This document shows, in pieces, positions 34,633 through 64,000 of a stretch of 64,000 nucleotides of DNA. The stretch is taken from NCBI GenBank assembly GCA_964016885.1, contig OZ024743.1, positions 15,872,001 through 15,936,000 on the forward strand. The letters are read 5' to 3'. Both the position numbers and the translations under genes were made by a program. A model generated the notes under the pieces. That model saw only the letters and a program-made list of their open reading frames with translations. It made no database searches and was not told where the DNA came from. Origin of the DNA: Eledone cirrhosa (Eukaryota). Every line of letters begins with the position of its first letter. Position 1 is the stretch's first letter.

Positions 34633-35254
34633 AATAATAATAATAATAATAATAATAAAAGTGAGTAAAATCGAATTTGCAGCTGCGATTACCATCTTTT
34701 GAAAACAATCCTCAGAAGCTGGCGTATGTGATGATATCGATAAATTGATTAATTATATATTAGAATAATAAACAGACGTTAAAAGTGTGACAAATTGAAA
34801 ACGGTGGCCACAAAAGCCACCACAACAACGAAAATACAAACAGGTTATAGACGAACCTGGACCTGATCGATAGATATTATATAAATATCTTCGATTGGTT
34901 TCTGGGAATCCAAAATCAACACTCCAGGTTGCGCAATATACAAGTCAGTAATGTATCCCAAGATCGAACGTAGGCATCCAATTTCCAATGGGCGTTTCAT
35001 TCTGTTTACTAAGAGATTGGCATGATGACTCCACTTTCATGTACTGTAGTATCAGCTAAGGAAGTGGGGTCTGGAATTCATTCTCAAGAAAGGAGGAGGA
35101 TTCACATCTGGGATTTTGGCGGGCAAATTCAAAAGTGTGAACAAAGGAAACTATTCACAGCTTTCAAAATAAGCTCTCGTCTAGGTTATCAAACAAACAA
35201 AAAAAATTAATCAATCAATTAATTAATTAATTATAAAGACTAGGAGACAATAAT

Positions 35255-36113: not shown

Positions 36114-36114
<1 letters not shown>

Positions 36115-39100: not shown

Positions 39101-41196
39101 GTTGACAAAAGGTACCACAGTTCTGATAATGAAATACCGAATCAAGGGTAATGATGTTACCAATTATAGACCTATCACATGTCTGTCCTTAATGTGGAAA
39201 CTGTTGACAAGCATTATGTCTGAGGAAATCTACCATCACCTCCACACAAACAACTTGTTACCGGACGAACAGAAAGGATGACGAAAGAAGTCACGTGGTA
39301 CAAAGGACCAGTTACTTATTGATAAGATGGTAATGAGGAATTGCAAGAGGAGACACACTGGTCTTGCCATGGGATGGATAGACTACAAAAAGGCATTTGA
39401 CATGGTGCCTCATCCTTGGATCACCAAAAGCCTGGAGATCTTCAAGGTGGCAGATAACATCAGACAGTTGTTGGGCAAAAGTATGAAGTCCTGGGAAACA
39501 GAGTTAACATCAACTGGAGAATCCTTTGTAAGCGTGAAGATCAAGAGAGGTATCTTCCAGGGAGATAGTCTGTCCCCTCTGTTTTTTGTCCTTGCCCTGA
39601 TGCCTCTGACCAGTGTACTGCGAAAAGTGAGAGCAGGATACAGGTTGGGAAAGGGAGGGCTTACCATCAATCACCTCCTCTTCATGGACGATCTTAAGCT
39701 CTTCGAGAAGAGTGAGGAGGTGTTGGATGTGCTTGTTGACACTGTCTGTATTTTCAGCAATGATATATGTATGCAATTTGGTATTAGTAAGTGTGGAGTC
39801 ATTGTGATGAGGAGGGGTAAGTTGAGCAGAAGTAACGGAATCCAGATACCAACAGGTGAGATGATAAAATAAATTGACTCTGAGGAAGGATACAAATATT
39901 TGGGCGTTCTGGAGGCTGATGACATCAAGAACAAAAAAATGAAGGAATTGATAAGAACTGAATACATTCGGAGAATAAGGAGCGTATTAAAGTCACATCT
40001 GAACAGTAGGAATGCCATAAGTGCAGTAAATTCCCGAGCTGTGTCTATTATTAGGTACAGTGCGGGAATTCTGAGATGGAATGTTGCTGAATAAATAGAA
40101 ATGGATAGGAAGACTAGGAAGCTATTGACTATCTACAATATGTTCCACAAGAGGAGTGATGTCGATAGACTCTACTTAAGGAGATCTGAGGGTGGAAGAG
40201 GTCTTATCAGCATAGAGGACTGTCTTCAGATGGAGAAAAACAACCTACACAAATATGTGACTGATAGTAAGGAGCCAATGCTCAGAACTGTACTGAAGGA
40301 GGGGACAATAGACCAGGGGATGTCCAAGGAGGAAATAACATCAAGGAGAAAGAGCAGCCTTCAGAAAAAATCCCTTCATAGTACCTTGTTTGAGAAAACT
40401 GAATTTAGAGATCCACAGACATGGAACTGGTTGAAAAGAGGAGACCTTAAAAAGGCTACAGAAGGAATGTTAATGGCTGCGCAGGAGCAGGCCCTCAAAA
40501 CGAAGTGGTTGAAACACCACATTTACAAGGAGGAGGCTAGCCCACTGTGCAGGATCTGTGGAGAGAGAGAGAGGAGACCGTGGCTCACATTGTATCCGAG
40601 TATAAACACCTAGCTCAGACTCACTATAAGGGCTGGAGACATGATGTGATGGGCAGGGTGATCCACTGGCACCTATGCAAAGTAAACAATTTACCACATT
40701 CTGAGAAGTGGTATGAGCATAAGCCAGAGGTGGTGATAGAAAATGATCAGGTGAAGGTGCTGTGGGATTTTAGGATACAGACGAACAAGAAACTGGAACA
40801 CAATAGACCTGACCTGGTGGTTTTCGACAAAGAAAAAAGATCGTGCCTGATTGTGGATGTAGCCTGCCCATTCGACACGAGAGGGCAAGGGAAGGAGAGG
40901 GAGAAAATTAACCGATACCAGGACTTAAAGTGGAAGGTAAAAAGGATTTGGAACTGCCATGAAGTCAAAGTGGTCCCGATTGTCATAGGCGCACTAGGTA
41001 CTATCTCAAAAAGTTTCCTGGGATGGTTAAAGAAAATTGGCCCCTTCACGCTTTTTGGAACGCTTCAAAAGGCATGCTTACTGGGAACAGCAAGAACCCT
41101 CCGATACGTCCTGAATATCTGAGGTTGCAAGTAGTGGCTTGATATTCATTTCAACAAACTTTCCAGTTAATTAACATCAATGACTGAGACTCGAAG
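36114..41196 (+). mobile_element. R4/Dong-type element, copy 2 (full length; stops and frameshifts; ~430-bp tandem duplication in leader at 36520-37375)
   Basis: RT, CRICG..H..(C) and RLE motifs across ORFs 37696-41122; (AAT)n flanks. Confidence 0.92.
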
Positions 41197-41209
41197 AACA
41201 ATAATAATA

Positions 41210-41350
41210 ATAATTGTTTCTACTTTTGGCACAAGGCCAGCAATAACCCAGTACATTACTGGTACTTTATTTTATCGACACCGTAAGGATGAAAGTCAGA
41301 GTTAACTTCGGTGGGATTTGAACTCAGACCGTAAAGGGACGTAACTATCC
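41210..41350 (-). mobile_element. 5'-truncated SINE
   Basis: Family tail, body and B box. Confidence 0.85.
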
Positions 41351-41459: not shown

Positions 41460-44400
41460 TTACAATAAGGTCGAGTAAAATGTAGTGGGGGGCAGCACTT
41501 CTCTCTCCACCCTCACCCTCCTTTCCAGGTGAAACTTGAAGAGGTTGATGAGGGATTGGCCGAAGAGAAAAGTATCTATCTTTAGTCCTTTCAACCTGGT
41601 CCACCATATAATCTCTTTCGCAACTGCCACCAGACAGAGGAAAATTTCCTGCTCTTCCTGACCTAAGGAAGGTGGCGGCTCGATCTTCACTATGGACTCG
41701 GCCGATAGCCGGATTCGTTCCACACGCGACAGTAGCTGTTCGACATAACTCCACAAGTCAGTAATGCACGGACATTGGACAAGTGCGTGCAGAACGGTTT
41801 CGCCGTTCTGTGCGTATCTTGGGCAGGTCCGTCTGACAGCACTTCCGTGCCTGTAGAGTTTATCCCGAACCGGCAGTGCCCCCCGGTAGCACTGCCAAGC
41901 GAGGGATTTCTGGAAATTGTTCATCGTCCCCGGCTCAAAAGTCCTCCGGTACAGACTGGTCAGTTCGACTTCGTCGAGGCCCAAAGCTTCTCCGAGTGCG
42001 TCATCGCACTTGCCCACCACTAATCCTCTATAGAACTCGAGAGTGGAAGTTCCACTGATCGCATTGCCCGCTTGGTAGAGGGCAGTGAGTGCCTGGAAAC
42101 ATTCCAGGTGCCAGTCTCGGTCTCTTCTTGACCCAGGACTGCAGCTCAGTCAAAGAAATGAGCTGCGGAAAGGCCCGTCTGATAAACGGCGACCACACTT
42201 GTTCACCATTGAGGCAGAATATCTGGAGATGTCGCAGCCTCAACGCATGTCTGCGCATCATTAGCCACGCCATGCCCAGCCCTCCGCGTAGAGGGTGCTG
42301 GCAGCAGATGGACCGCCTCACCAACGGAACTTGTCCCCTCCACAAGAATTTGAAGAGGAGCCATTCCAACTTGACGAGGCGCGGACGGGGGCAAGGCACG
42401 ACGATTAGGTGGTAGTAGATGATGGACGCGATATACGTATTCCCCACCTCCGCGGCGCGACCTTTCAATGATAGCTTCCTCCCAGCCCATTTTTGGGTGA
42501 GACTGGCTACTCTGCTCGTTACCTCGTCCCAATTTTTTTCCACCTGGAGATCTGGTCCGAACCAAACCCCGAGCAACTTTACCGGTCCGTCCGTCCAGCG
42601 CCCCACGAAGCTGTTGGACGGCATGGGCTTGTCTCTCCAGGTTCCGAGCTGCAAGCCCACCGACTTTTCCGGGTTAAGTTTGGCTCCTGTCAACCTTTCA
42701 TATTCCGTCAATAAGGTGCCGACCACCTCGATTTCTGAGGTGTTCGACACCATCACGGTGATGTCGTCCGCATAAGCCGACACCGCCTTTCCACGTCCCG
42801 GTTCGAGCGGGATGCACTGCAACAGCTCCAGCTTCCGCAGTAAAGGCTCGAGAGTCAATACGTACAGAAGGGAAGAGAGAGAGCACCCTTGACGGACCGA
42901 TCGGGAGGGCCGAAATGGTTCCGAGAGGTGGCCATTAACCTTGACCACCGAGCGTGTGCCGCTGTGCATCGCAACGATCCAGCTTCTAAAGACAGGGCCG
43001 AAGCCAGCTGCTTTGAGGACAAACTCCAGGTACCGATGGTCGACCCTATCGAATGCTTTCGATTGATCTAAATTGATCAGTGCCCCACCGAAGCCAGGTT
43101 TACACCCTACCCTCTCTATGATGTATCGCATGAGGTGGAGATTGTCGTGTATGGACCTGGCTGGGATTGCGCAAGTTTGCGCCTCCCCAACCAAATCCTC
43201 GACGACAAGCGCCAATCTCTTTGCTAACACCTTGGCCAAAATCTTAAACTCTGTGTTGAGCAGAATTATGGGCTTGAAGTTGTCTAATGTATCCCTCTTG
43301 TTCTCGTCTTTCCTTATCAGCGTCACCACTCCCCTGCTCACAGAACAGGGAATACTCCCATTCTGCTGCCAGTTGCAGTAGAGTGCTTCGAGGAGTTCGG
43401 AGAACAAGTCAGGCATATTTACGTAAAGCTCGTAGGGCAGGCGATCCAAACCGGGTGACTTGCGCCTCATGCAGCCGACAAGGGCGTCCTGAATTTCGGC
43501 TGAAGTAATCGGCCTTTCGCAGCGCTCAGCGTCGACCGTCGAGATGCGCGGCAAGCCGTCAAGGTAGGGACTGAAATCCGCTACTCTCTCTGACTCGCCA
43601 CTCTCCCTGAACAACCGAGCAAAGTGCTGGCGAAAGGCCTTACACACCGCTTGGAATCGCTTATCTCGTGTCCGTCTCGGTCCGCCAAAGACCGAATTGT
43701 GGTTTTATTACCACGCTGCGCCTCCGCCACGCGGGCCCATCGAACAGCTTTAGTTCCCTCGTTTCTCAGCGTACGCGCCTTAGCTCTGACAATGCAACCT
43801 TTGTGTTTGGTATTGAAGAAATGGTCTAATGCCATTCTCGCCGCTAGCACGTCAGTTGCGATGCCAGTACAAATAGCCTCGTCTAACTTATCTACCAGCT
43901 CCCCCTCCTTTCTATTTTTCTCTGACGCTAGTTCTTTGCTGAACTCTATCGAAGTTACTCTAATCTCTCTTTTGAGAGCACCCCACCATCTGTTGTTGAT
44001 GATCCCTCCTGTCAACTTTTGCTTAACTAAATTGTTGACTCGGTCCCTGTAAGCCTTACGTGCCGGAAATGACATGTTCAGCTTCCAGTAACCTGGTCCT
44101 AACCTACGCGTTTTATTTAGGTCGACCGTAAAGATCACAAATTTGTGATCTGAATAGGCGACCGTTTTAAAAAGTGGACAGCCCACACTATTTCTATCTA
44201 TTTTCCTAATGAAGATCCTGTCTATATACGATCTAGATGACCCCATTCGGTTGGTCCATGTCCATACTGGCACATTGGGGAAATCTAGTCGATACCTGTC
44301 AGACAGTTGGAACTGGCTGAGTAGGTGCTTGAGGCTTTTGCACCCCCCGCTCCTATCGGCTACTCCCACACATCCCAGCGTGCGTCTAAGATGCCATTCA

Positions 44401-44825
44401 AGTCCCCCGCTAACAGTAAAAGGCGAGACGTACCCAGAAAGGTCTCCAGGCGCCTAAAGAAGTCAGGTCGACCGGCCCCTGTAGGGGCCTAGACGGCCAG
44501 CAGTCTAAAGGCACCACCTTCGCTACTGCTCACATCCAAGACCACCAACTTACCGTCCGGGTCCCGGAAGATCGACCTTACCTCTAGATCCAGTCCTTTC
44601 CTAAACAGCACTGCCACCCCACCCCTCATTCCCGGCCTGCTAACAGATGCGAAGATCTGATAGTCGTCGAAAATGGGGGCTAGTGCGCGCGTGTTTGGAA
44701 ATTCTGGTCTCGCTTACGGCAATCACATCCATTTCCAGCGACCGGAGGTCGTTGAGCAGGAGACCCTGCTTCCAGCGTGACTCCAGGCCGCGCACATTTA
44801 AACTTCCTACTCTTAATATGGCCAT
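41460..44825 (-). pseudogene. Tx1-type ORF2 (APE endonuclease plus RT), frameshifted
   Basis: SLNVRGL, SET, SYIDRIF, SDH; KSPGLD, DQSKAFDRVDH, VRQGC, AYADDIT; CP...ETVLHALVQC. Confidence 0.9.
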
Positions 44826-44834
44826 ATTGGTAAG

Positions 44835-46776
44835 CTAAGAGAGAGAGAGGGAAGGTTTACTTACCTCCCGGGTCTTGTGAAGGTCGGGTCGTTCGACCTC
44901 CATGGTTGGTGGGGTTTCTTTTGGGAACCCCTTTAAAAGTCTTGATGTGGGTTTCACATTCGGGTTTCCCACGTCTTGAGGAAAGCTCTCTCGAATTTCT
45001 TTGAAGGAATTGAGTAACATTCAGACCTGAAGCAAATCTTCTGGCACGCAAAATGTGCTCATTTCAAAAACTCGCCCTCTGTTTGAATGTCCTCGCTCCC
45101 GCTAAGAGGGCCATCAGTTTATCGTTGGCCCTTCTGACAAGCACGAAGTTTTTAACATTTTGTTGGTGTGGTTTTATTGTTTTCGTTTTGGTGAAGGTGG
45201 TGGCGATGGTTTTGGTGGTGTTGTTTCGGGTATGTCTATGTTTGTTGTAGGTGTGGTGTCTGCAATTTCAGGTATTTGTGTGTTTATTTGTACTTGTGTT
45301 TGTTTAGGTTGTTTGCGTTTCGGGGATTGTGGAGGTGGTGTAGATGTTGCTGTTGGTGATGATGTTATTGGGGAAGTGTTTGCGTTAGTGGTGTCTGTAT
45401 TTTTTGTTGTGTGTGTTTTTGTGTTTTGTTGGGGCTTTTTTTTTGTGAGTTTTCTCTGTCTTTTGGCACTTTTGGGTTTTCCTTCATCTTCGCTGCTGGA
45501 AGACAAAGGGTCTGTGTCTGTGAGTGTCTCTGTGTCTGTGTGTGCGTTTATTGTTTTGTCTATGTCTATAATTGGGGGGTGGGGGTGGGAGAGCTTTCCT
45601 CGTTTTCCCCTTGGATTGGTTTTGGTGTTGGTGGTGATCCGGCTGCTTTTGATGTTGGTGTCCGTGTTTTTGTTGATGTTGTTTTTGGTGGTGGTGGTGG
45701 TGTAGCTTCCCGTGCTGACACTGGCGTTGGCAACAAAGGAGGTTTGCGACCCCCTGCATTTTTGCGCTGAGGGCAGAAGGCTTGAAGATGCGTTGCTTCC
45801 CCGCAGACGAAGCAGCGTGGCCTTCTTCCGTCAATCATTAGTTTGTTGTCCCATCCTGCAGGCGGGCAAAATCCGGGATGTTATTCATATCCTCCGTTTT
45901 CATTTGGAGAAGAATCTCCAAATCCATTCCGGACCAGTCCTCTCTCTCTGTCCTTTTGATGTCTAGGAGGGCAGTGTCTGTCCCGTCCTCGATTACGCAT
46001 CCCAGCAGCCACCATATGTTCATTCCTGGTGGGATGCTGGGAATGCGTACCTTCACTGTCCTTTTACCCATATAGGACGGATGCATGATAATGCGTTCCG
46101 TTCTGCAGGGGGTCACCGAGTGCTTAATAGCGAGGGCCTCGGTTTTGAACAGTACCGAGATGGTACCGAACTGTTTGCCTCTTGCTTTGTACTCTATGTT
46201 ACTTCCGATGTACTCCAAAGCAGCCTCTACCTCTGCTTGGCTCGCAAGTTCCACTTTTCGTGTCTGCACCGAAATACATCGAAAGAACACCGTCCTCCTT
46301 TGCATGGCCGCTATTGCCTCGTCCGGGATGGTCAGGTTTTCCCAGGACTTCTCCCGTTTAATTAGCCTCCACGCTTGGGCCAACTGTTCGTCTTTATCGC
46401 TAATATCAATATCAATATTTAATAAGCGCTTTGTTTTTGCTGCTGCTGCCGCAAATGTGGTGTTTCTGATGCTCTTATTGTTGTTGTTGTCATTCTTGCT
46501 GTTGCCACCGCCATCCTTGTTTACATTGAAGTTGTCGGTGTTATTGTCGTTATTGCTCTGAGTTGTTGTTGTGGTGGTGGTGGTGATGTCGTTTTCAGAT
46601 GATACTGCTGCTATGGCAGAAGGTTGTGATGATAGCTTTTGAGTTTTGCCTTCACATTCAGTAGAGTGGATGACAGGCATGACTGTAGCCGTCGTAGTCG
46701 TGGTGAAATCTCCAGTGGCTGCCTTTAAACTTTTGACCTGAACGTTGTTTACCGTTTCAAGGTCGAAAATTTCCAT
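44835..46776 (-). pseudogene. Tx1-type ORF1 (gag-like, zinc knuckle), frameshifted
   Basis: KVRIPSIPP; GRRPRCFVCGEATHLQAFCP; Thr/Pro-rich tail. Confidence 0.8.
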
Positions 46777-47959
46777 AATTTTCTTTTGGTGGGGAAGCGA
46801 TTTTTTTCGAAATTTTAAAAAATAAATCTGAATATTCGGGCTTAAAGCCCGAATATTGAGAGGTATCCCGCTCTTTAAATCAAGATGTGTACCTTAAGTT
46901 TCGTTAACGACAAGAAAATACAAAAAAAGACACTTTAAAACAACTTAAAGTTACGAACCTTTTCCCCCGCAGATTTGTACTGTCTTCACACATGTGCGGC
47001 CATAATAATAATAATAATAATAATAGGGAAGATACGCACATGGTGGGTAAGGTATTATGGAATCGCTCTCGTAAGTTTTTGATTTTTTACATATTTAAAA
47101 CAATTGTGATAGAATAATTCTTATTACAAATGAAACTCAGGAAGTCGCAACGCATCACATTACGGCATAGGACTCCAATATGTAATATTTAATTTTGTAC
47201 CAGAAATCTTATAGTCAGAAAAGAAAATGGCTAGAAAATAACAGCCAAATAACTTCACCACCAGCACCACCACCGCCGCCGCCACCATCACCATTACCAC
47301 AAAAAATCTAGCCAAATACAGACCAACACCATCCCTATGGCGCTGCTGTCCCATCACCACCGCCGCCGCTGCATCGTGACTACCGCCACTGTTCCCTCAC
47401 TGCTTGAGAGAGGGTGGTGATGCCGCTACACATGAAGGGGTGCGAGGAAGGTATCAAAAGATATAAATAGACTGGGTTAGTGACTCGGTCAAACAGCTAA
47501 CAACAACAACAACAACACCAAAATAATTATGTTGTAGTATCTCTAAACTCTCTCAAAATGTTTAGTTTAAACGATGTCAAATCTAAACTATAATATAATA
47601 ATTGTTTCTACGTTAGGCACAAGGCCAAATATAACCCAGTGCATTACTGGTACTTTATTTTATCGACCCCGTAAGGATGAAAGGCAAAATTAACCTCGGC
47701 GGGATTTGAACTCAGAATGGCAAGGGCCGTAACTCTATACGTCAAAGCATGGCGTCCGACTCTCTACCAATACCGCTGTAGTGGCTGAGATGGTCGCTTG
47801 GCAACTAGCAGTTGCCTCCCCTTAACAACCCTTCAGAGAGCGGAGGCAAAAATATTGACGTTGTAGGAAATTTACTAAATTATCGCATATAATAAAATGA
47901 TTGTTACATTTGATTGTTCATTTATTTATTCAACAAAGAGAAACATCCCTTTCATTTAT

Positions 47960-47970
47960 TGGCGATCCTG
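47960..47970 (+). promoter_or_regulatory. Primer-binding site, probably tRNA-Arg(ACG)
   Basis: TGGCGATCCTG is complementary to ..CAGGATCG-CCA, the 3' end of invertebrate tRNA-Arg(ACG) as I recall it. Confidence 0.6.
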
Positions 47971-48536
47971 ACGATAAAGAATGAAAACGCAGCCTATTTG
48001 AATTCGCCATTCGTTTTAACGGCAATGTGGAATGGCTTAACATTTGGAATGTTCGAATCACTTAGCGTAAGTCCATAAAATTCATAATATTCCATTTGTT
48101 GAAGCACGCATACAGACAAACACAAAAATACAACACAGAAAAAAAAAAAAAAAAAAAAAAAGAAAAAAAAAGGATTTCTCTGGATATAGAATTTTGCTTT
48201 CAACATTCTGTGGAAATTACAAATGGAGACTCAGATATTTTGTTTTCCCGCGTTCAGCTTGTCTTCTCCAATCCCAGCCATCTGATTGGCTGCATCGTGC
48301 CACATGACGGCTTCTTCATCACGGACACATTTTTAAATCAGCCATCTTGGATTTTCTTACCATTAATTTTCATAGAAAATGATTTTTGTTTATTATTAAA
48401 ATTTTATTTAGAATACTTTTTTTAAAGAAAAAAAATTAGCAGTATTTTAAAACGGCTACCACCAATTACCAGCAATCAGCAACAACACCTGGCTAACTAT
48501 TGACCAACACCAAAAATTCATCAAATACGTGACACC

Positions 48537-49334
48537 ATGAGTCAACATCATTTGCCGTCCTTCGCAGGCGACATCAAGTTGTGGTTTGCGCAGCTGGAGT
48601 GTTTCTTTGAATTAACCAAGACAAAAGAACAGCATAAGCTGAAGGTCCATATCAATGGCCTACCTGTTTCCTTGGCATTCTCGGTGAAGGACGTTGTGAC
48701 GGATTTGGACGCCGACGTTACCTACGGCTCATTAAAAAACGAAATTCTTCGCAGAAATACCAACTCGGTAGAGAGCCGTTTTCAGGAGTTGTTGGAGGAT
48801 GCTCAAATGGGTGACAGGAAGCCGATCTCCTATTTCCGACATTTGCGGGAGTTAAGCGACTCCCAGGGGATTGACACCCCCTTCATAAAGCAGCTTTTTT
48901 TCTCACGTCTACCGCCAAGTGCGCAAAGGATATTGGTTAATAGTTTAGAGAAGGAGTCGTTAGAGCAACTTGCCGCGTCCGCGGATAGGATACTTGAGGT
49001 GGACTCGAACAGCAGTCACCATAATCCTTATGTGGCTTCAGCTTGCGTCCCCCCACGCAGTTCTTCTGTGGCCGACAGCAAACTGTTGGAGTTGATTGAA
49101 GCTCTCACCAAAAAGGTAGAAGATTTGACTGTACATCACAGAGAGCCTTCTCAACGTTTGAGGTATCGTTCGCCGCCGTCCTCTATTCATCGAGCCAGCA
49201 CTGCGACACAGACAACAATAATTCTTCGTTGTGTTGGTATCATGCTAACTTCGGCAGTAGGGCACAACGTTGTCGCACGCCCTGTAATTACAAGAGATCG
49301 GGAAACGCAAAGCAGAGCCACTAGGGGCAGCTAG
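48537..49334 (+). pseudogene. gag: Gypsy Gag; C-terminal CHCC motif lies in a shifted frame
   Basis: LPSF..LWFAQLECFF, MGDRKP; CWYHANFGSRAQRCRTPC at ~49232-49285. Confidence 0.85.
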
Positions 49335-52300
49335 TGAACTCTGGGAAAAGCGACCGAACCGCCATCTTTTCGTATACGACCTGCGGTCAAAAAAATTTTT
49401 CCTTGTCGATACTGGCGCGTCACTGAGTATTTGGCCAGTCAGTTATCTCAAAAAAAGCCCAGCTGAATCAAATATAAATCTACGAGCAGTCAACCACACG
49501 GCCATTCGAACGTACGGGCAAATTTCGCTTCCTCTTCGGTTAAAAAATTTGCGGCGTGATTTGAAGTGGAAGTTTACTATCGCCGACTTGCCATACGCCA
49601 TTTTGGGAGCGGATTTTCTCCACCATTTTTCCTTGTTGGTGGACATTCGCAGACAACGCCTTTTTAGATGCTGAAACAAGCCTTTCTTTCGAGGGTTCAG
49701 AGCCGGATGTCGCCACTGTCACCCCTTCCTTTTTCTTGGCTGAAGTGGGCCACCAGTATCAAAGCCTGTTACATTCATTCCCTCAGTTGACGCAGGGAAA
49801 GTTACGAATAACTAGCCCGGATCATGCGATTGAACACTTCATATCCACTACAGGTCCACCTGTTTTCTCACGTCCTCGAAGATTATCTACAGAGAAGTTG
49901 AAAGCTGCACGTCTTGAATTCGACCACATGCTGGAATTGGGAACAATTCGGCGCTCCACAAGTCCTTGGGCATCGCCTCTACATATGGTACCTAGATCTT
50001 CTGGTGATTGGAGACCGACGGGTGACTACCGACGCTTAAACGCGATTACTGTGCCTGACCGTTATCCAATCCCGCATTTGCAGGATTTTGCATCGTCATT
50101 GCAGGGTTGCAGAATCTTTTCTAAGCTTGATTTGATCCGAGCTTATAATCAAATTCCGGTTAACAAGGAGGATATCCCAAAGACTGCTATTGCCACTCCT
50201 TTCGGATTATTCGAGTTCCTCACTATGCCTTTCGGCCTTAGAAATGCTGCAAGTACCTTCCAACGATTTATGGATGATATTACTCGGGGCCTGGATTTTG
50301 TGTACACGCATATCGATGACGTGTTGATTGCTAGTTCTTCCCCCTCATCAGCATTCAAAGCATCTGGATCTCTTATTTCGTCGTTTACAGAGATATAAGG
50401 TTCATATTAATGCTTCCAAGTTTGTTTTCGGCTCGACTTCACTAACATGTTTAGGCCATCTGATTGACGCCGATGGAATTCGACCTCTTCCTGAGAAGGT
50501 TAAGGCAGTATCGGGTTTGCCTCCGCCAAGTTCACTGCGACAATTGCGTCAATTCCTGGGCCTTGTAAATTTTTATAGGGGATTCGTACCTGGTTGTTCC
50601 AAATTGCTGTTCTCGTTGACAGAGATTTTTAAGGGTTGCCGGCGTAAGAATATGGACATTTCCTTAAATAAAACGCAGCTTGATGATTTAAAAAAAGTGA
50701 AAAAGGCGTTAGCGAACGCGTCTTTGCTCGCCCACCCAGTACCCAACGCCGAGCTATCGCTCTGTGTTGATGCTTCGGATAGCGCCGTGGGCGCAGTCTT
50801 ACAGCAGAAGTGTGATGGGGTACAGCAACCACTCGAGTTCTTTTCGAGGAAGTTAAAGCCTGCCGAAACTCGCTATAGCACCTTTGGAAGGGAGCTATTA
50901 GCAATTTATTTATCAGTGAAACATTTTGCTCATGTACTTGAAGGTAGAACATTCACCATTTTCACTGATCATAAACCTTTGACGTTTGCTCTTCGAACTA
51001 AAGCAGACAAATACTCGCCCAGATAGACGAGACATCTGGACTTCATCTCACAGTTCACGAACGACATTCAACATATTCCGGGTTCTTTGAATACAGCGGC
51101 CGATGCGCTGTCTCGCCTGCCGATCGCATCGATTTCGTCTTCCGAGGAGATAGATTTACATCGAATGGCAGCTGCCCAACCCACTCTCGAATCGTTGGAT
51201 GTTACATCCGATCTCAACTGCTGACGGACAAATACTGTGTGAGGTTTCGTTGGACTCACCACGACCTCTGGTCCCAGTGGAACATCGACGAACTGCGTTT
51301 CTCACTTTACATGGCATTTCTCACCTAGGAGTATCAGCCTCAGTAAAACTCATAACAGCCAGATTTTTCTGGCCTGATATGAGACGTGACATTGCTGCTT
51401 GGTGTCGTTCCTGTGTCGCTTGCCAACAAGCGAAAGTTCATAGACATGTTAAGGCTCCTCTCGGAACCTTCACCTGCCCCGATGCAAGATTTCGTCACAT
51501 TCATGTGGACATCGTCGGCCCGTGGCCGGTTAGTCGTGGTTTTTCGTATCTTTTGACGATTGTTGACCGTTTTTCGCGTTGGCCTGAAGCCATCCCTATA
51601 ACAGATATCACCGCTGAAACCACAGCCCGTACTCTCGTATCTTCATGGATCGCTCGTTTCGGTGTACCAACCACCATATCAACGGATCGTGGTCGTCAAT
51701 TTGAGTCTAACCTCTTCCGATAACTAACCCAAATCCTGGGGGCTACTCGAATAAGAACCACGCCTTACCACCCATTCTCAAACGGAATGGTGGAAAGATT
51801 CCACAGGCAGCTCAAAGCCTCCTTAAGGACTTCCGTTGGAGCGAGTACCTACCTATTGTGTTGTTGGGTATTCGGTCGACGGTAAAGGTGGACCTTGGGT
51901 TCTCCTCTGCCGAATTAGTTTATGGTACTCCTCTGGCGTTACCGGAGCAAATGCTGGCCCCTTTTGACCTGACTTCGCAGGACCCCGCTTCCTACGTGTC
52001 CCGGCTTCACTCTTATTTCAAGGATCTACCACCGATGGGCACTAGGAAGCAGACTGTAAAAACTGCCGTCCCAAGGGATATTGCCTTGTGGACACATGTG
52101 TTCGTTAGAGACGACGCCGTGCGACCCCCTCTTCAACGGCCGTACTCTGGACCCTATCGTGTGCTTGCTCGCACAGACAAACATTTCACACTGGACATTC
52201 GGGGTTCCAGGGAAACGGTTTCCGTTGATCGTCTCAAACGAGCAAACCTGGACAATGACACAATGACACTTGAAACTCAAATGCCCCCTTCTTTTTCTTT

Positions 52301-52412
52301 GCCACATAGGCCTATTTCTCCCCCCCCCCCCCCACCATCAACACACAAAACTACGACCCGTTCTGGGCGAAGGGTGCATTGGCCCCGTAAGCTACGCAGT
52401 AATATAAACTGA
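49300..52412 (+). pseudogene. pol: Gypsy Pol (PR, RT, RNase H, IN), disrupted
   Basis: FLVDTGAS; [24 protein letters not shown]; VDASD, RELLA, TDHKPL; H..H..C..C, VDIVGP, TDRGRQF, GPY. Confidence 0.9.
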
Positions 52413-53500
52413 ATTGTATTTTTTTTTTTTCTTCCAATTGTTTTTGCTGTATATTGCATTTTGTTACTCTTTGATTTTTGACTGCCTACGGCAGTGTCAA
52501 TATATTATATTTTTCGTAACATTACGACTGTTGTCAATTCTGACACAGTCCATTTTTTTAGTGCATTTTTATAACTATGTTACATATGGCATTTTTATTG
52601 CCTAGCAAAACATTTTTTTCTTGTTTATCGCATTTGGGGCCCCTTTATTGCGAAGAGTGTTATCTTTTCATGCATTTTGCATCTTTGACTGTACGTTTTT
52701 TTTTTTTTGTGTTAATGCTTGCCGACATGAATCTATTTATTTTTTTTAATTTGTTGATACATTCTTCTACATTTTGTAAACTACCTTCTCTTCATTGTTA
52801 ACGATTTTTCGACAAAAAATCTGCTCCGAGGTGAATGTAGTGGCTGAGATGGTCGCTTGGCAACTAGCAGTTGCCTCCCCTTAACAACCCTTCAGAGAGC
52901 GGAGGCAAAAATACATCCGGACACAGACGCAGGTTCACTCACTCTCTTTGGACAGCGGACATGAACAGACGTGGAAAGATTCGCTCCTCAAAATATTGAC
53001 GTTGTAGGAAATTTACTAAATTATCGCATTTAATAAAATGATTGTTAGATTTGATTGTTCATTTATTTATTCAACAAAGAGAAACATCCCTTTCCTTTAC
53101 TGCCAATCCACCGCTCTAAACTATAATATAATAATAATAATTGTTTTATAGTCAGAAAACAAAATGGCTAGAAAACAACCACCAAATAACCACCCCGCCA
53201 CTATCACCATCACCACTACCAACAAAATCTAGCCAAATACAGACCGGCACCATCTCTATAGTACTGCTGCCCCGTCGCCACTGTATCATCGCTACCGTCA
53301 CTATTCCCTCACTACTTAAGAGAGGGGTGGTGGTGCCGCTACACATGAAAAGAAGGTATCAAAAGATATAAATAGACTGGGTTAGTGACTTGGTCAAACA
53401 GCTAACAACAACACCAAAATAATTATGTTGTTATATCTCTAAACTCTCTCAAAATGTTTAGTTTAAACGATGTCAAATCTAAACTATAATATAATAATAA

Positions 53501-53560
53501 TAAGTGCTTCTGCTTTTGGCACGGGGCCAGCAATTGTCCCGGTGTGTTGCTGGTGCTTTA
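53501..53560 (-). mobile_element. SINE 3' fragment with 8 A-to-G changes on the plus strand
   Basis: Aligned by hand to 13564-13624: 11 differences in 60 nt, 8 of them A>G. Confidence 0.85.
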
Positions 53561-56500
53561 TGAAAAAATTATAGTCGAAAAATTATAGAACAGAACACAG
53601 ACAGAAGCAGACGCAACAACGGACACGGGTTTCAAAAGTTTTGAACACAACAATCCCTACATCCCTTAGCAGCAGCAGCAGTAACAACAACACTAGTTAC
53701 TGGGGTTACTGGCCTTGTAAAACGAAAAACGCAAAGGAGAAAAAACAGACAAAAAATGGAAAGAAAAACTAAGTCAGACATTCAAACATTACAATGAAAC
53801 TTGTGTTTGTTTTTTTAGGTTTTTATCAATTTGTTTGTTTGTTTATTTATGTTCGTCTCCAGCGTGATGGTGCCACGCTAAAATCACCGAGGGCGGTGGG
53901 GTGTGATGAAATCACCGGTAGTTATGTAACCATACATTCACCAAACCACGATATGAGTGCTTAAATGTCGAACCTAAACAGTTCGAATAACGGTGAAGTG
54001 GAGACTGGAATGTCATGTGACAGACTCTCACTCAGCAGGTGCTCCCTGGCCATGGAGCAGGGACCTGGCTGTCATCCAAATACTGCTGGTGTTGGAGGAA
54101 GAGGAAGAAGGAAAGGGACCAGAACCATCTGGACGAAATAATTGAATAGAGCTGTTATGCATTGTTACCTGAAGAGTAACCCCAAGGAAAAAGGCTATAG
54201 GAAACGGATGCATAACATCTGGAACGAGATTGGTCTATTTAAATTAGATGAACAAAAATTGGCCGGACAGGCTCGCGTAATAAGAACTAATGGGTGGATA
54301 AGCGAGCTGGAACTGGAGGAACTGAGCAGAGAGATTAGGTTGGAAATGGAGAGTGGAGTATGCCAGGCAAACGAGCCAGTGGGAAATGAAGGTGAAGAGG
54401 TTGAGAGAATGGAGGAACCATCCGAAGCAGACAATGATCTGAATGCTGAAATAAATAATACCTGGAACAAAGATACGGACATTGAGGAAATGAATGCTGA
54501 TGGGCTAGGACAAAATTTGGTTGATATCCTAAACTTAGTGGTAGATGAAATGAACAATGATAGTGGGAAACCTATGAACCTAAGATTTGTAGAGAGGAAA
54601 AAGTTAAAAGAAACAACAGCTAAGGTAAACAAAGTCATCCCATACCTTGAGGCGAGGAGCCTTCACCAGTGCAACAATATCCTCAAAGCAACAGCAAATG
54701 CGGTGAGGAAATTACTTGGCATAAAAGCGAGAGGAAACAACAACAAGAAAGATCAGAACCTTGGTGGAAGGAAGGACTGAATGGTCAAATCAGGGAAATG
54801 AGAAATGACATTGGAAAGCTTGAGTCCCTATTGAATGGGACGCAAAAAAACATAGACACTAACAATAGACTGGAAATAAAGTACAAAACTAGGAGGAAAA
54901 AGCTAAATATTATCATAGAGGAACTGAAGCAACGCATTGTAGCAAAGAGTGCAAAAATTAGGCGATACGAGAGCAGAGTCAGTCAGTATAGACACAACCC
55001 CATGTTTTACAACAACCAGAAGATGTTGTTTGGACAGCTTGAGGGAAAGAAAGAGGCAACGATTGATCCCTGAGGCGGAACAAACTAAGACATTCTGGAG
55101 AGGAATATGGGAGCAGGATGTTAAACATAACGACCAGGCAGTGTGGATTGAGACAGTACAAAAGGAGATCAGTGAACAGGCACACCAACAAACTGATTTG
55201 AGTATTACAGTTGAAACTCTGAAGGGGCAGGCCAAAAAACTAACCAACTGGAAATCACCAGGCCCAGATGGTGTGCAGGGGTATTGGATTAAAAATATAA
55301 CATCCCTCCACCCGAAACTGACAACCATGTTAAATGACTGCTTGATATCAGGTGAGGTACCAGAGTGGTTGACAAAAGGTACCACAGTTCTGGTAATGAA
55401 AGACCGAATCAAGGGTAATAATGTCTGTCCGTAATGGGGAAACTGTTAACAAGCATTGTGTATGAGGAAATCTACCATCTGCTCCACACAAACAACTTGT
55501 TACCGGACGAACAGAAAGGATGCCGAAAGAAGTCACGTGGTACAAAGGACCAGTTACTTATTGATAAGATGGTAATGAGGAATTGCAAGAGGAGACACAC
55601 TGGTCTTGCCATGGGATGGATAGACTACAAAAAGGCATTTGACATAGTGCCTCATTCTTGGATCACCAAAATCCTAGAGATCTTCAAGGTGGCAGATAAC
55701 ATCAGACAGTTGTTGGGCAAAAGTATCAAGTCCTGGAAAACAGAGTTAACATCGGCTGGAGAATCCTTGGGAGGCGTGAAGATCAAGATAGGGATCTGCC
55801 AGGGAGATAGTCTGTCCCCTCTGTTGTTTGTCCTTGCCCTGATGCCCATTGACCATTATACTGTGATAAATGAGAGCAGGATACAAGTTGGGAATGAGAG
55901 AGCTTACCATCAATCATCTCCTCTTCATGGACGATCTTAAGCTCTTCGGGAAGAGTGAGAAGCAGTTGGATGTGCTTGTTGACACTGTCCGTATTTTCAG
56001 CAATGATATATGTATGCAATTTGGTATTAGTAAGTGTTGAGTCCTTGTGATGAAGAGCGGTAAATTGAGCAGAAGTAACGGAATCCAGGTACCAACAGGT
56101 GAGATGATAATGGAAATTGACACTGAAGAAAGATACAAATATTTAGGTGTTCTGGAGGCTGATGAAATCAAGAACAAAAAAATGAAGGAATTGATAAGAT
56201 CTGAATACATTCAACGAGTAAGGAGCGTATTAAAATCACATCTGAACAGTAGGAATGCCATAAGTCCAGTAAATTCCCGAAGCAGTGTCTATTATTAGGT
56301 ACAGTGCGGAATTCTGAGATGGAATGTTGCTGAACAAAAAGAAATAGATAGGAAGCTATTGACTATCTACATGCTCCACAAGAGGAGTGATGTCGATAGA
56401 CTCTACTTAAGGAGATCTCAAGGTGGAAGAGGTCTTATCAGCATAGCAGACTGTGTTCAGATGGAGAAAAACAACCTACACAAATACGTGACTGATAGTA

Positions 56501-57428
56501 GGGAGCCAATGCTCAGAATTTTACTGAAGGAGAGGACAATAGACCAGGGGATGTCCTAGGAGGAAATAACAACAAGGAGAAAGAGCAATCTTCATGAAAA
56601 ATCCCTTCATAGTACCTTCTTTGAGAAAACTGAATTTAGAGATCCACAGACATGGAACTGGTTGAGAAGAGGAGACCTCAAAAAGGCTACAGGAGGAATG
56701 CTAATGGCTGCGCAAGAGCAGGCCCTCAAAACGAAGTGGTTGAAGCACCATATCTACAAGGAGGAGGCTAGCCCACTGTGCAGGATCTGTGGAGAGAGAG
56801 AGGAGACTGTGGCTCACATTGTATCCGAGTGTAAACACCTAGCCCAGACTCACTATAAAGGCTGGAGAAATGATGTGATGGGCAGGGTGATCCACTAGCA
56901 CCTATGCAAAGTAAACAATTTACCACATTCTGAGAAGTGGTATGAGCATAAGCCAGAGGCGGTGATAGAAAACGATCAGGTGACGGTGCTGTGGGATTTT
57001 AGGATACAGACGGACAAGAAACTGGAACACAATAGACCTGACCTGGTGGTTTTGGACAAGGAAAAAAGATCGTGCCTGATTGTGGATGTGGCCTGCCCAT
57101 TCGACACGAGAGTGCAAGAGAAGGAGAGGGAGAAAATTTACCGATACCAGGACTTAAAGTGGGAGGTAAAAAGGATTTGAAACTGCCATGAAGTCAAAGT
57201 GGTCCCGATTGTCATAGGCGCACTAGGTACTATCTCAAAGAGTTTCCAGGGACGGTTAAAGAAAACTGGCCCCGCCCCGCTTTTTGAAACACTTCAAAAG
57301 GCATGCTTGCTGGGAACAGCAAGAACCCTCCGATACGTCCTGAATATCTGAGGTTGCAAGTAGTGGCTTGATATTCATTTCAACAAACTTTCCAGTTAAA
57401 TAACATCAATGACTGAGGCTCAAAGAAC

Positions 57429-57477
<49 letters not shown>

Positions 57478-58547
57478 TAGGGAAGAAGACGCACGAGGTG
57501 ACGGAGGTCATGAAATCGCTCCCGTAAGTTTTGAATTTTTAACATATTTAAATCATTTGTGAAATAACAACTCTTAGTACAAATGCTACGTAAAGCACCC
57601 GGCTTGAGCCCCAAAAAATTCGGACACAAAATATATTGTTATAAGGCTCAAATATTCAAATATTCAACTTTGTATTGTACACTGTATATCCCCCCCAAAA
57701 AATGGCTATAAATGGAAGAAGAAGAAGAACCCCCCCCCCTCCTCTCCTCTAGCTACACTATATAGGACAGCTAAACTCACCAACACCAGAAACTAGATAC
57801 ACCACCCACCCCATCATCTGTGTACACTAAACACAACAGCATTTTCACCTTCACCGCCACCGCTCACTACGGCCATCATTACCACCACTATCCCATCACC
57901 GCCGCCACCACCCCTTGACTCCTTCACTGCTGCTGCCACCGCTACAGCACCATCACTACAGTAATACGGTCGCATCACCGCCACCACTGCCTCGGTATCG
58001 ACATCACCACCACCACTGTCTCAGTATCGCCAACGCCGCCAGTCTCTGCTGGCTGCCACTTCCACATTATAGAATTCCTACTACTAACAAAGAGGAAGGC
58101 ATCAAAATATATAGATAGACTCAAAAGAAAAAAGAAAAAACAAACAACAAAACCAAAGCAGCACAGCAACAACAGCAAAAAACGAGAAAAACAAACAGAG
58201 AAAAACAAAAACAAAAAAAGAAACCCCAAAAACGTAAAGAAAATAAGAATGAAGAGAGAAGCAAGCGGACGGACAGAGAAGAGGGGGGAAAAAGTAAAAC
58301 TTAAAAAACAAAAACTAAGTCAGACATTCGAATACTACATTACAATGAAACTTATGCTTATTCATTTTTGGGGCCCTTTCTGCCCGTGTGTTTGTTTGTT
58401 TATGTGTGTTCGTATACAGCGTGGTGATAATGCCACACAAGGGCCAAGTGGGATGGCGGATCCACAGATGGCTATGTAAACATACATTCGCCAATCCTCG
58501 ATAAGAGTGTTTAAATATCGAACATAAACAGTTCGAATAACGGTGAA

Positions 58548-61343
58548 ATGGAGACTAGAACGTCATGTGACAGACTCTCACCCAACAGGTGCCCCCTGGC
58601 TCAGCAGCAGGAACCTGACTGTCAACCAAATACTGCTGATGTTGGAGGAAGAAGAAGAAGGAAAGGGGCCAGAACCAACTGGACGAAAGAATTGAATAGA
58701 ACTGTTATGCAATGCTACCTGAAAAGTAACCCCAAGGAGAGGGGCTACAGGAGACGGATGCATAACATCTGGAACGAGATTGGTTTATTTAAATTAGATG
58801 AACAAAAATTGGCCGGGCAGGCTCGGGTAATAAGAACTAATGGGTGGATAAGCGAGCTGGAACTGGAGGAACTGAGCAGAGAGAATGGCTTGGAGATGGC
58901 GGGTGTAGTATGCCAGCGATACGAGAACAGAGTCAGTCAGTATAAACAGAACCGCATGTTCGACAACAACCAGAGGATGCTGTTTGGACAGCTTGAGGGG
59001 AAAGAAAGGGGCAACGACTTGATCCCTGGGGCGGAACAAGCTAAAACATTCTGGAGAGGAATATGGGAGCAGGATGTTAGACACAATGCCCAGGCAGGGT
59101 GGATTGAGACAGTACAGAGGGAGATCGGTGAGCAGGCACAGCAACAGACTGATTTGAGTATCACAGTTGAAACTCTTAAGGGGCAAGCCAAAAAACTAAC
59201 CAACTGGAAATCACCAGGCCCAGATGGTGTGCAGGGGTATTGGATTAAACATTTAACATCCCTCCACCCGAAGCTGACGGCCATGTTCAATGACTGCTTG
59301 GTGTCGGGTGAGGTGCCAGAGTGGTTGACAAAAGGTACCACAGTTCTGATAATGAAAGACCGAATCAAGGGTAATGATGTTACCAACTATAGACCTATCA
59401 CATGTCTGCCCGTAATGTGGAAACTGTTGACGAGCATTGTGTCTGAGGAAATCTACCATCACCTCCACACAAACAACTTGTTACCGCACGAACAGAAAGG
59501 ATGCCGAAAGAAGTCACGTGGTACAAAGGACCAGTTGCTTATTGATAAGATGGTAATGGGGAATTGCAGGAGGAGACACACTGATCTTGCCATGGGATGG
59601 GTAGACTACAGAAAGGCATTTGACATGGTGCCTCATTCCTGGATCACCAAAAGCCTGGAGATCTTCAGGGTGGCAGATAACATCAGACAGTTGCTGGGCA
59701 GGAGTATGGGGTCCTGGGAGACAGAGTTGACATCAACTGGAGTATCCTTGGGAAGCATGAAGATCAAGAGAGGTATCTTCCAGGGAGATAGCCTGTCCCC
59801 TCTGTTGTTTGTCCTTGCCCTGATGCCCTTGACCATTATGCTGCGAAAAGTGAGAGCAGGATACAAGTTGGGAAGGGGAGAGCTTACCATCAATCACCTC
59901 CTCTTCATGGACGATCTTAAGCTCTTCGGGAAAAGTGAGAAGGAGTTGGGTGTGCTTGTTGACACTGTCCGTATTTTCAGCAGTGATATATGTATGCAGT
60001 TTGGTATTGGTAAATGTGGAGTCATTGTGATGAGGAGGGGTAGGTTGAGCAGAAGTAGCGGGATCCAGATACCAACAGGTGAGATGATAAAGGAAATTGA
60101 CTCTGAGGAAGGATACAAGTATTTGGGCGTTCTGGAGGCTGATGGCATAAAGAACAAAAAAATGAAGGAATTGTTAAGAACTGAATACATTCGGAGAGTA
60201 AGGAGCGTATTGAAGTCACATCTGAACAGCAGAAATGCCATAAGCGCAGTAAATTCCCGAGCTGTGTCTATTATTAGGTACAGTGCGGGAATTCTGAGAT
60301 GGAATGTTGCTGAACAAAAAGAAATGGATAGGAACACTAGGAAGCTATTGACTATCTACAACATGTTCCACAAGAGGAGTAATGTCGATAGACTCTACCT
60401 AAGGAGATCTGAGGGTGGAAGAGGTCTTATCAGCATAGAGGACTGTGTTCAGATGGAGAAAAACAACCTATACAAATACGTGACCTATAGTAAGGAGCCA
60501 ATGCTCAAAACTGTACTGAAGGAGGGGACAGTAGGCCAGGGGATGTCCAAGGAGGAAATAACATCAAGGAGGAAGAGCAGCCTTAAGAGAAAATCCCTTC
60601 ATAGTACCTTCTTTGAGAAAACTGGATTTAGAGATCCACAGACATGGAACTGGTTGAGAAGAGGAGACCTCAAAAAGGCTACAGAAGGAATGATAATGGC
60701 TGCGCAGGAGCAGGCCCTCAAAACGAAGTGGTTGAAGCACCATATTTACAAGGAGGAGGCTAGCCCACTGTGCAGGATCTGTGGAGAGAGAGAGGAGACT
60801 GTGGCTCACATTGTGTCCGAGTGTAAACACCTAGCCCAGACCCACTATAAGGGCTGGAGACACGATGTGATGGGCAGGGTGATCCACTGGCACCTGTGCA
60901 AAATAAACAATTTACCACATTCTGAGAAATGGTATGAGCATAGGCCGGAGGCGGTGATGGAGAACAATCAGGTGAAGGTGCTGTGGGATTTTAGGATACA
61001 GACGGACAAAAAACTGGAACACAATAGACCTGACCTGGTGGTTGTGGACAAAGAAAAAAGATCGTGTCTGATTGTGGATGTGGCATGCCCGTTCGACACG
61101 AGAGTGCAAGAGAAGGAGAGGGAGAAAATTAACCGATACCAGGACCTAAAGTGGGAGGTGAAAAGGATTTGGAACTGCCATGAAGTCAAAGTGATCCCGA
61201 TTGTCATAGGCGCACTGGGGACTATCTCCAAAAGTTTCCAGGGATGGTTAAAGAAAATCGGCCCCTTCACGCTTTTTGGAACGCTTCAAAAGGCATGCTT
61301 GCTTGGAACAGCAAGAACCCTCCGATACGTCCTGAATATCTGA
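58548..61343 (+). CDS. RT, CCHC and restriction-like endonuclease protein (931 aa; in-frame 597-nt deletion relative to copy 1)
   Basis: Uninterrupted ORF with [26 protein letters not shown] and RPDLVVVDK..IVDVACP..K..RY. Confidence 0.9.
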   Translation: METRTSCDRLSPNRCPLAQQQEPDCQPNTADVGGRRRRKGARTNWTKELNRTVMQCYLKSNPKERGYRRRMHNIWNEIGLFKLDEQKLAGQARVIRTNGWISELELEELSRENGLEMAGVVCQRYENRVSQYKQNRMFDNNQRMLFGQLEGKERGNDLIPGAEQAKTFWRGIWEQDVRHNAQAGWIETVQREIGEQAQQQTDLSITVETLKGQAKKLTNWKSPGPDGVQGYWIKHLTSLHPKLTAMFNDCLVSGEVPEWLTKGTTVLIMKDRIKGNDVTNYRPITCLPVMWKLLTSIVSEEIYHHLHTNNLLPHEQKGCRKKSRGTKDQLLIDKMVMGNCRRRHTDLAMGWVDYRKAFDMVPHSWITKSLEIFRVADNIRQLLGRSMGSWETELTSTGVSLGSMKIKRGIFQGDSLSPLLFVLALMPLTIMLRKVRAGYKLGRGELTINHLLFMDDLKLFGKSEKELGVLVDTVRIFSSDICMQFGIGKCGVIVMRRGRLSRSSGIQIPTGEMIKEIDSEEGYKYLGVLEADGIKNKKMKELLRTEYIRRVRSVLKSHLNSRNAISAVNSRAVSIIRYSAGILRWNVAEQKEMDRNTRKLLTIYNMFHKRSNVDRLYLRRSEGGRGLISIEDCVQMEKNNLYKYVTYSKEPMLKTVLKEGTVGQGMSKEEITSRRKSSLKRKSLHSTFFEKTGFRDPQTWNWLRRGDLKKATEGMIMAAQEQALKTKWLKHHIYKEEASPLCRICGEREETVAHIVSECKHLAQTHYKGWRHDVMGRVIHWHLCKINNLPHSEKWYEHRPEAVMENNQVKVLWDFRIQTDKKLEHNRPDLVVVDKEKRSCLIVDVACPFDTRVQEKEREKINRYQDLKWEVKRIWNCHEVKVIPIVIGALGTISKSFQGWLKKIGPFTLFGTLQKACLLGTARTLRYVLNI

Positions 61344-61369
61344 GGGTGCAGGTAGTGGCTTGATATTCA
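61333..61369 (+). other. Conserved 3' stem-loop spanning the stop codon (also at 34548-34584 and in copies 2 and 3)
   Basis: TGAATATC..GATATTCA outer stem with an inner G-U-rich stem. Confidence 0.65.
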
Positions 61370-61419
61370 TTTCAACGGACATCAATGACTGAGATTCAAG
61401 GAATAACAACAATAATAAT

Positions 61420-62589: not shown

Positions 62590-64000
62590 AATGCTATGGT
62601 TGACGGAGGCACGGCTCTGTAAGGTATTGTAAATTTTGACCGCTATAACAATTGTAAATTGTTTAAAACTTTAACCAAATTGTTGACAAAAACACCCTCC
62701 TCCTCGTGAGAGGGGTCTTTCTGCCCGTTATTTGGCCCTTCGGGGTTAAATAGCCGCTTATTGGGGTTTTGTGCCCAATATTTATTTTAAACAAAAAAAA
62801 CATGGCTACGAAAAACAATTTTCATAGGTCACTCCCACTCATTCCGTCTACTTCTTCCTCAATCGTCACTACAGCAGAGAGAAGATTGTCTCTCTCCCTC
62901 CCTTCTCTAAATGTGTCTCTCTTTCTCCTTCTCTTTCGCAAGCGACGCCAGTAAAGAAAAATCACGTAGAAAGCGTGCAACATTTCTCCACGACGACGAC
63001 GACAACGACTAAAAAAATGTGCGGGAAATACGAAAACCCATTTCATTCATCTGACGTCATGAATAATAGCAGTGGGAGCCGTAATAACAGCAGCAGCAGC
63101 AGCAGCAGCAACAGTGACAAGGAAAACAACAGTAGCAGCCGCAACATCATCAACAGCAGCATAAACAACTACAACATTAGCAGCAACAACAACAGCAGCA
63201 GCAGAAGCAGCAACAACAACAACAACCACAGCAACAGCGGCGGCGGCAGTAGCCGTAGTACCTGCAGCAACAACAAAAGTAACAGCAGCTCTGACGACAA
63301 CAACAACAGCAACAACAGCAGCAAAGAAAAACCAATCTCGTTTGCAGGTATCGCAAAGAACCTGGAAACCATCCTCATAACAAATCAGGAATTAGAGGAA
63401 GCGAAGAAGATGGTGACGGAAACCGGACACCGAGCAATCTGCAAGGCAGCCGAAACATTTTTCGAAACCCAACAGCACTGTACGGTCACGTACCGTACAG
63501 TAAGAACAAAATCCCGTAGGGTTGAAAGAGCCACAGAGGCTGCAATACAAAAAGCCTTAAGGTATGTGTGGCAGCGGAAAACGCATATCACCCGAGGCAA
63601 GAAATATGCCACCGTAGACGTGCTTTTTGCCACACCCCAGGAGGCAAAGGCTCAATCCTTAGTGACCCTAAGGAACGAGGAAATGGTTTTGGTGCCCTCC
63701 TACTGCGGGCAAAAAATTGTGAGGGTCAAACTATCCCCCCCCCCCGGGATTGCCCCTTCTTGGCTGGCCGCGTCTGTCCTCGTCGGAATCGAGGACTAAA
63801 GAACTGTACTGCAAGTACAGAAAAAAGTACGAGAAGATTGGGTCGGCACTTCCATTGAGATGTTAATCCAAACCAACAAGGAGTGCATCGAAGCTATCCC
63901 GGATGTGATAGACTTCGATAACGGCACTCAACTTCCCATAAGTGTTGAGGGCAAACGCCCGAAATGCTTTCGCTGTGGATCGAAGACTCACCTCAGGGCC
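62590..64000 (+). mobile_element. Tx1/L1-clade element, 5' part with disrupted ORF1; runs off the window
   Basis: ORF1 similar to 45838-46776 (SFA.., RGKKYATVDVLF, PSYCG..VRV, PP); GKRPKCFRCGSKTHL; preceded by (ATT)n. Confidence 0.85.

Follow-up and report, generated by a model that had tools for sequence, protein, structure and literature searches.

Clustered A-to-G changes in Dong retrotransposons of Eledone cirrhosa: probable ADAR editing of a captured SINE, fixed by reverse transcription

Can RNA editing be written back into a genome and inherited there? The question is raised by a 64,000-nucleotide stretch of the genome of Eledone cirrhosa (assembly GCA_964016885.1, contig OZ024743.1, positions 15,872,001 to 15,936,000; hereafter the window, with positions counted from its first letter). 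It carries four copies of Dong, a long interspersed element (LINE) that lacks long terminal repeats (LTRs; hence a non-LTR element) and has a single open reading frame (ORF), all on the same strand and each between (AAT)n tracts. An earlier note, made from the sequence alone, had described dense A-to-G clusters on the sense strand of copy 4 (57480-61410, +) and of a short interspersed element (SINE) fragment in the leader of copy 3 (47026-57430, +), and had proposed that element RNA was edited by ADAR enzymes, reverse-transcribed and integrated. We find this proposal strongly supported for the leader SINE and weakly for the ORF. In the DNA of SINE pieces, A-to-G changes fall on one strand, are confined to duplex-forming sequence, are biased by the neighbouring base and are inherited by groups of copies. 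Those in the leader SINE are very probably ADAR edits of LINE RNA that were fixed by reverse transcription, several times. In the ORF, no more than a share of the A-to-G changes can be put down to ADAR.

The fragment in copy 3 comes from the 3' part of a tRNA-like SINE and lies antisense to Dong (53501-53560, +). As the earlier note had counted, eight of its 15 A's read as G on the Dong sense strand (53512, 53523, 53524, 53536, 53541, 53546, 53549 and 53555) and seven are left. Dong copies that lack copy 3's short deletion in this piece have 11-12 A-to-G changes, and in its early forms the piece shows, relative to the SINE majority, 11 A-to-G changes plus two or three other letters. Across 197 ordinary SINE pieces A-to-G changes occur at 0.7% per site, i.e. 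A was kept and G is derived, and even at a rate of 2% per site the chance of eight in 15 would be 1.5e-10. The changes end at the edge of the SINE: 11 of the 15 A's in its 57-nt core were changed, as against 3/253 and 3/95 in the Dong flanks.

This piece is a fixed part of the leader of the old Dong subfamily to which copy 3 belongs. A 27-nt pattern taken from it has 63 matches in the genome (reversed control, 0), and in all 40 of these that were examined it is followed, on its own strand, by a Dong ORF. Some of the altered letters later decayed in a lineage-specific way, so that pattern site 38 is now G in 23, T in 34, A in four and C in one of 62 matches. Copy 3 is larger than the earlier note had assumed, its leader starting at about 47026 and including a tandem duplication (47209-47590 and 53146-53500) that recurs in three other loci (L147, L156 and L160). 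The same leader is broken by an LTR retrotransposon and by a further SINE (47591-47775, -, with its last bases resuming at about 53110) that is unedited and serves as an internal control.

In all, 292 SINE pieces were compared, those under 68% identity being dropped. Their A-to-G counts are bimodal, 198 pieces having 0-3 and 94 having 4-23, and T-to-C changes number at most four in 291 of the 292, the lone exception being the inverted arm of a hairpin (L229, see below). Eleven edit patterns can be told apart. Because recombination may link patterns (L222 combines two), the sample represents at most that many independent events. A search of leader junctions, which is blind to editing, gave 157 matches, of which 90 were retrieved; this set contained empty sites, many unedited insertions and additional edit patterns. 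Leaders with an empty site were L198 and L208, of 30.

The edited pieces follow the neighbour preference that the earlier note had named as a signature of ADAR. By 5' neighbour, the A-to-G fraction was 49/71 (0.69) after U, 61/79 (0.77) after A, 21/55 (0.38) after C and 5/39 (0.13) after G, i.e. 5/39 for 5' G versus 110/150 for 5' U or A; by 3' neighbour it was 40/54 (0.74) before G and 18/47 (0.38) before U. The same 5' and 3' preferences are described for metazoan ADARs (PMC9989829). The preferred sites include SINE positions 14, 26, 78, 91 and 92. Next to Dong ORFs, 89 edited pieces were found, every one in antisense orientation. Among 203 SINE pieces within leaders, 88 are edited and 115 unedited, and none of the 115 shares three or more rare variants with another locus. 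The (AAT)n tract of the Dong leader receives SINE insertions, antisense to Dong. Such insertions strongly favour this tract, where as many as five or six SINEs can be stacked in one orientation (for example in L238, L246, L252 and L281), and SINEs are frequent after Dong 3' ends.

Edited SINEs were also found in inverted arrangements. In L229 (1397-1937), an inverted SINE hairpin carries A-to-G changes on one strand in both arms; G-T makes up 40 of its 182 predicted pairs, and sites with a 5' G in the inverted arm were changed in 0/5 cases. A second inverted hairpin, L299 (1314-1570), likewise changed on one strand in both arms, has 18/26 of its paired A's changed versus 1/20 of the unpaired (p=1e-5). 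L298 (482-2057; C2, about 367.006 Mb) holds four SINEs that are inverted relative to one another at distances of 0.7-1.4 kb. Three of them are edited, all on one strand, and there is no long open frame near them. Each of these three loci is single in the sample. Editing of an antisense SINE upstream of an ORF is likewise common to two loci of a second LINE family (L227, also L301, and L230, also L304), which may be RTE-like and which in L304 has a frame of 1069 aa. Leader sequence of a second LINE family also adjoins the hairpins of L229 and L299.

The events behind the leader changes may have run as follows. Antisense SINE in Dong RNA would pair with sense SINE RNA, supplied either in trans, which we prefer, or by a flanking SINE in a read-through transcript, the alternative. 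A germ-line ADAR would then convert A's in the duplexed SINE to inosine, roughly one half to two thirds of them. Dong reverse transcriptase (RT) would read inosine as G, as is established for RTs (PMC5224506), target-primed insertion would fix the edits, and an edited copy could become a new master and found a subfamily. SINEs that inserted into a leader after Dong integration would not have passed through RNA; never having been in LINE RNA, they would therefore be unedited. The host has an ADAR2-like gene: the ADAR domain (PF02137) is matched on three contigs, and one exon matches human ADAR2 with E 3e-102. Unedited sense SINE pieces near Dong copies number 12, and a search for SINEs edited on their sense strand gave two matches. 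Folding of the antisense SINE on itself was considered as the editing substrate and rejected, pairing probability and edit frequency being uncorrelated (rho 0.02, 40 sites); no inverted repeat longer than 42 nt was found inside Dong in three elements.

Several points weigh against an origin of the leader changes in edited LINE RNA. No sense SINE partner lies within 3 kb in any of the six Dong loci checked, and no unedited parent locus of L229 or L298 was found. The sample of 292 pieces is enriched for edited pieces because some searches targeted them; the neighbour counts reuse SINE sites across patterns, so that their p=2e-9 overstates the case; and the shared status of edited pieces partly counts the edits themselves. 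Seven of the 115 unedited in-leader pieces have common truncation points and might be inherited. In addition, ADAR1 restricts L1 with no editing detected, and human L1 RNA was reported to be unedited in culture (PMC5224506).

For the ORF, the earlier note had taken copy 4 to be hypermutated and to hold the only intact frame, and had pointed out that A-to-G changes never create a stop codon. Neither the hypermutation nor the intactness holds up. The open frame of copy 4 (58515-61343, +; 942 aa with RT, CCHC knuckle and PD..D motif) has a private in-frame deletion of 597 bp at 58916 (942 vs 1141 aa), and none of the 119 scored genome protein matches contains a stop in the queried 337 aa, many of them lying in frames of 1141 aa. 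The argument from intactness fails because copy 4 is both young and internally deleted. Hypermutation specific to copy 4 is rejected as well: 39 other loci are 99% identical in the RT region (40 scored of 349 candidates), and of the 59 A-to-G changes at sites where copies 2 and 3 agree (alongside 21 T-to-C, 20 G-to-A and four C-to-T) 52 belong to the majority of the young subfamily. Only 16 changes are private to copy 4, five of them A-to-G.

A tree of 118 of 120 Dong copies, two being left out for low coverage, forms a ladder from the old subfamily (copy 3) through the copy 2 group and the copy 1 group to the young subfamily (copy 4). The clusters quoted earlier in the copy 4 ORF are present and can be placed on it. 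At 59273-59315 (+), six A-to-G changes in 43 nt are shared by the young subfamily, and five of them arose on one branch. At 59701-59729 (+), the cluster reported as six in 35 nt exists, with six in 29 nt, but was gained in at least three separate lineage steps. The copy 4 leader likewise shows the six A-to-G differences from copy 1 that had been described at 57930-58000 (+), with 6/6 in another young copy (L125) and 5/6 in L132. Of the 59 A-to-G sites of copy 4, copy 1 covers 48 and shares 19. The G alleles are derived and not ancestral, since the older subfamilies have A. The A-to-G changes of the copy 4 ORF are ordinary inherited subfamily markers, gained stepwise. They are also not assembly errors, because the 39 other loci are 99% identical and contigs of two further public runs (X5 and X8) have the G's of 59273-59315; X1 has both letters. 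Young Dong sequence (59000-61400) occurs in runs under 17 different organism codes, three of these runs being compared here; relatives, transfer or contamination may lie behind this spread.

On the trunk of the Dong lineage, polarised changes between subfamily majorities comprise 102 A-to-G, 49 T-to-C, 41 G-to-A and 16 C-to-T, and parsimony on the tree gives 92, 44, 38 and 15 for the deep branches against 509, 267, 850 and 552 for the tips; replication through RNA therefore has a spectrum opposite to that of genomic decay. Editing would account for a part of the trunk changes through its neighbour rule. At silent trunk sites, A-to-G changes fall from 13/69 (0.188) after U and 26/144 (0.181) after A to 10/87 (0.115) after C and 6/95 (0.063) after G (5' G 6/95 vs other 49/300, p=0.016), and this gradient is absent from private A-to-G changes and from T-to-C changes. 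The ADAR neighbour bias foreseen by the earlier note is thus present on the 5' side, while 3' G is not significant (p=0.30). Trunk A-to-G changes are clustered in the two longest of five steps (p=0.0004 and 0.003) and not significantly in the other three, and one branch has 11 A-to-G among 18 changes, five of them inside 37 nt.

Other results speak against editing as the main source of these ORF changes. An A-to-G rate no higher than the T-to-C rate after normalisation had been named in the earlier note as refuting its reading, and for the ORF this is essentially what is seen: rates are 0.078 vs 0.061 over the element body (p=0.155) and 55/397 (0.139) vs 42/369 (0.114) at silent trunk sites. 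For deep branches the normalised ratio is 1.29 (p=0.19), and where a branch has 3-9 tips it is 0.82. T-to-C changes show mild adjacency of their own (p=0.03, two steps) and G-to-A changes one cluster (p=0.007), and no privately hypermutated ORF occurs among the 120 Dong copies, the maximum being four private A-to-G changes per 100 nt.

The strongest rival is an error bias of RT (G placed opposite U in the first strand and opposite T in the second, by wobble errors) or GC-biased conversion, without any ADAR. The silent trunk rates of A-to-G and T-to-C are both about 2.5 times those of G-to-A (0.050) and C-to-T (0.042), the reverse of decay after insertion and of the tips, and this near-symmetric AT-to-GC part must have arisen otherwise than by sense-strand editing. 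Decay of CpG sites in the old majorities was rejected as the source of apparent A-to-G or T-to-C changes, which have low rates in such contexts. The T-to-C changes do not avoid a 5' G (6/46), and an ADAR-like activity on cDNA or on the antisense strand was rejected as their source. An RT error bias or conversion cannot, however, yield 11 of 15 altered A's in 57 nt beside unchanged flanks, hairpin arms altered only where paired, or an avoidance of 5' G that is restricted to A-to-G. We regard it as a serious candidate, though one that falls somewhat short of an even chance.

Selection on the protein is another candidate for the ORF excess, through retention of conservative A-to-G changes (K-to-R, N-to-S and I-to-V). 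Non-synonymous A-to-G changes exceed T-to-C changes (47/898 vs 7/429, p=0.0015), and 18 of the 47 are K-to-R. Selection leaves the neighbour gradient at silent sites and the non-coding SINE pieces unexplained, however, and as a filter it is compatible with either mutational source; it is unlikely to be the explanation of the excess. Taking these results together, we infer that three things combined on the trunk: editing at a low level, an AT-to-GC bias that is symmetric, and selection in favour of conservative changes. We lean slightly towards ADAR editing as the source of up to about half of the silent A-to-G changes in the ORF. The wider proposition, that ADAR has been a recurring germ-line mutator of Dong through SINE pairing in trans and that much of the amino-acid difference between successive subfamilies (18 K-to-R of 47) stems from lower-level editing of the ORF, is put forward tentatively and would not attract a bet at evens.

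Two further explanations can be set aside briefly. The leader piece could have come, without editing, from an existing SINE subfamily in which T had been replaced by C beforehand, and SINE variants do exist while 40 of the 63 pattern matches were examined, but the restriction of those 40 to Dong leaders, the eleven different patterns on the same strand and the inverted arms changed on the transcript strand rather than the SINE strand make this highly improbable. An artefact of the assembly, whether base-calling or polishing with reads of edited RNA was to blame, may account for the single-copy loci L229, L298 and L299, for the first two of which no parent locus was found. It can hardly be the general cause when about 60 copies, dispersed and on both chromosome strands, have G at the same sites with later lineage-specific decay, and the ORF G's recur in contigs of X5 and X8.

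The remaining Dong copies of the window are copy 1 (30708-34658, +), of an intermediate subfamily and with an internal deletion at 34158, and copy 2 (36114-41214, +), of an older subfamily. Leaders have been rebuilt among the subfamilies (57480-58300 in copy 4 vs 47026-53744 in copy 3), and the edited SINE is missing from the younger ones. Copy 4, a member of the youngest subfamily, is flanked by (AAT)n tracts, and (AAT)n follows the 3' end in 18/18 young Dong loci. Pfam analysis identified RVT_1 in the Dong ORF, whose closest relatives of solved structure are R2 proteins; its CCHC and PD..D motifs were assigned by pattern. The LTR retrotransposon nested in the unedited SINE of copy 3 (47776-53109, +), which has an RT domain by Pfam and lies outside the phenomenon described here, is presumably Gypsy-like, judging from its layout. 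Its LTR parts are 95-100% identical and its reading frames are fragmented. Another non-LTR element occupies 41460-46893 on the minus strand, with an RT domain (Pfam) and ORF1-like frames, and an ORF1-like frame resembling that of this element lies at the end of the window (62828-64000, +).

A-to-I editing is treated as non-heritable, whereas in Dong a replicating LINE seems to have fixed edits in DNA and multiplied them. Such fixed edits would preserve, like fossils, traces of ADAR activity in the germ line and of RNA duplexes that formed in vivo, and they would separate SINE insertions that were carried through LINE RNA from later arrivals. Clustered A-to-G changes would also inflate the apparent age of repeats, and the dated subfamily ladder makes the role of editing in LINE protein evolution testable.

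The elements themselves resemble known ones. R4/Dong elements, which target (TAA)n, have like ours a single ORF with RT and a C-terminal nuclease motif (PMC7998251), and Dong-R4 has been recently active in Octopus vulgaris (PMC13282606), like the recent activity seen here; our own placement in this clade is provisional. Octopus repeat papers cover active Dong without its editing (PMC13282606 and PMC9115989), the words "editing" and "ADAR" being absent from PMC13282606. In the literature searched, in which coverage of subscription papers is thin, heritable ADAR edits are not reported for LINEs. When metazoan ADARs edit young repeats, or duplexes of sense and antisense RNA, the type of substrate and the neighbour preference are the same, but the change is RNA-level and non-heritable (PMC9989829), whereas the changes described here are in DNA. 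Deaminase clusters fixed in genomic copies, and detected as here against the family majority, are also known from APOBEC editing of LTR retrotransposons in vertebrate genomes (PMC4866542 and PMC2873906; ADAR is not mentioned in the former). Those are G-to-A changes made by deamination of cDNA, whereas ours are A-to-G, follow ADAR neighbour rules and are confined to sequence capable of forming double-stranded RNA. Closest are the ADAR-type clusters recorded in exogenous proviruses (PMC12925331 and PMC8025556), where local A-to-G clusters on the RNA strand, affecting about half of the A's, were written to DNA by RT, as is probable here. Unlike in those proviruses, the changes in E. cirrhosa are carried by a non-LTR retrotransposon within the assembled genome of the host, they fall on an antisense SINE that it had captured, and the edited copy appears to have founded subfamilies of dozens.

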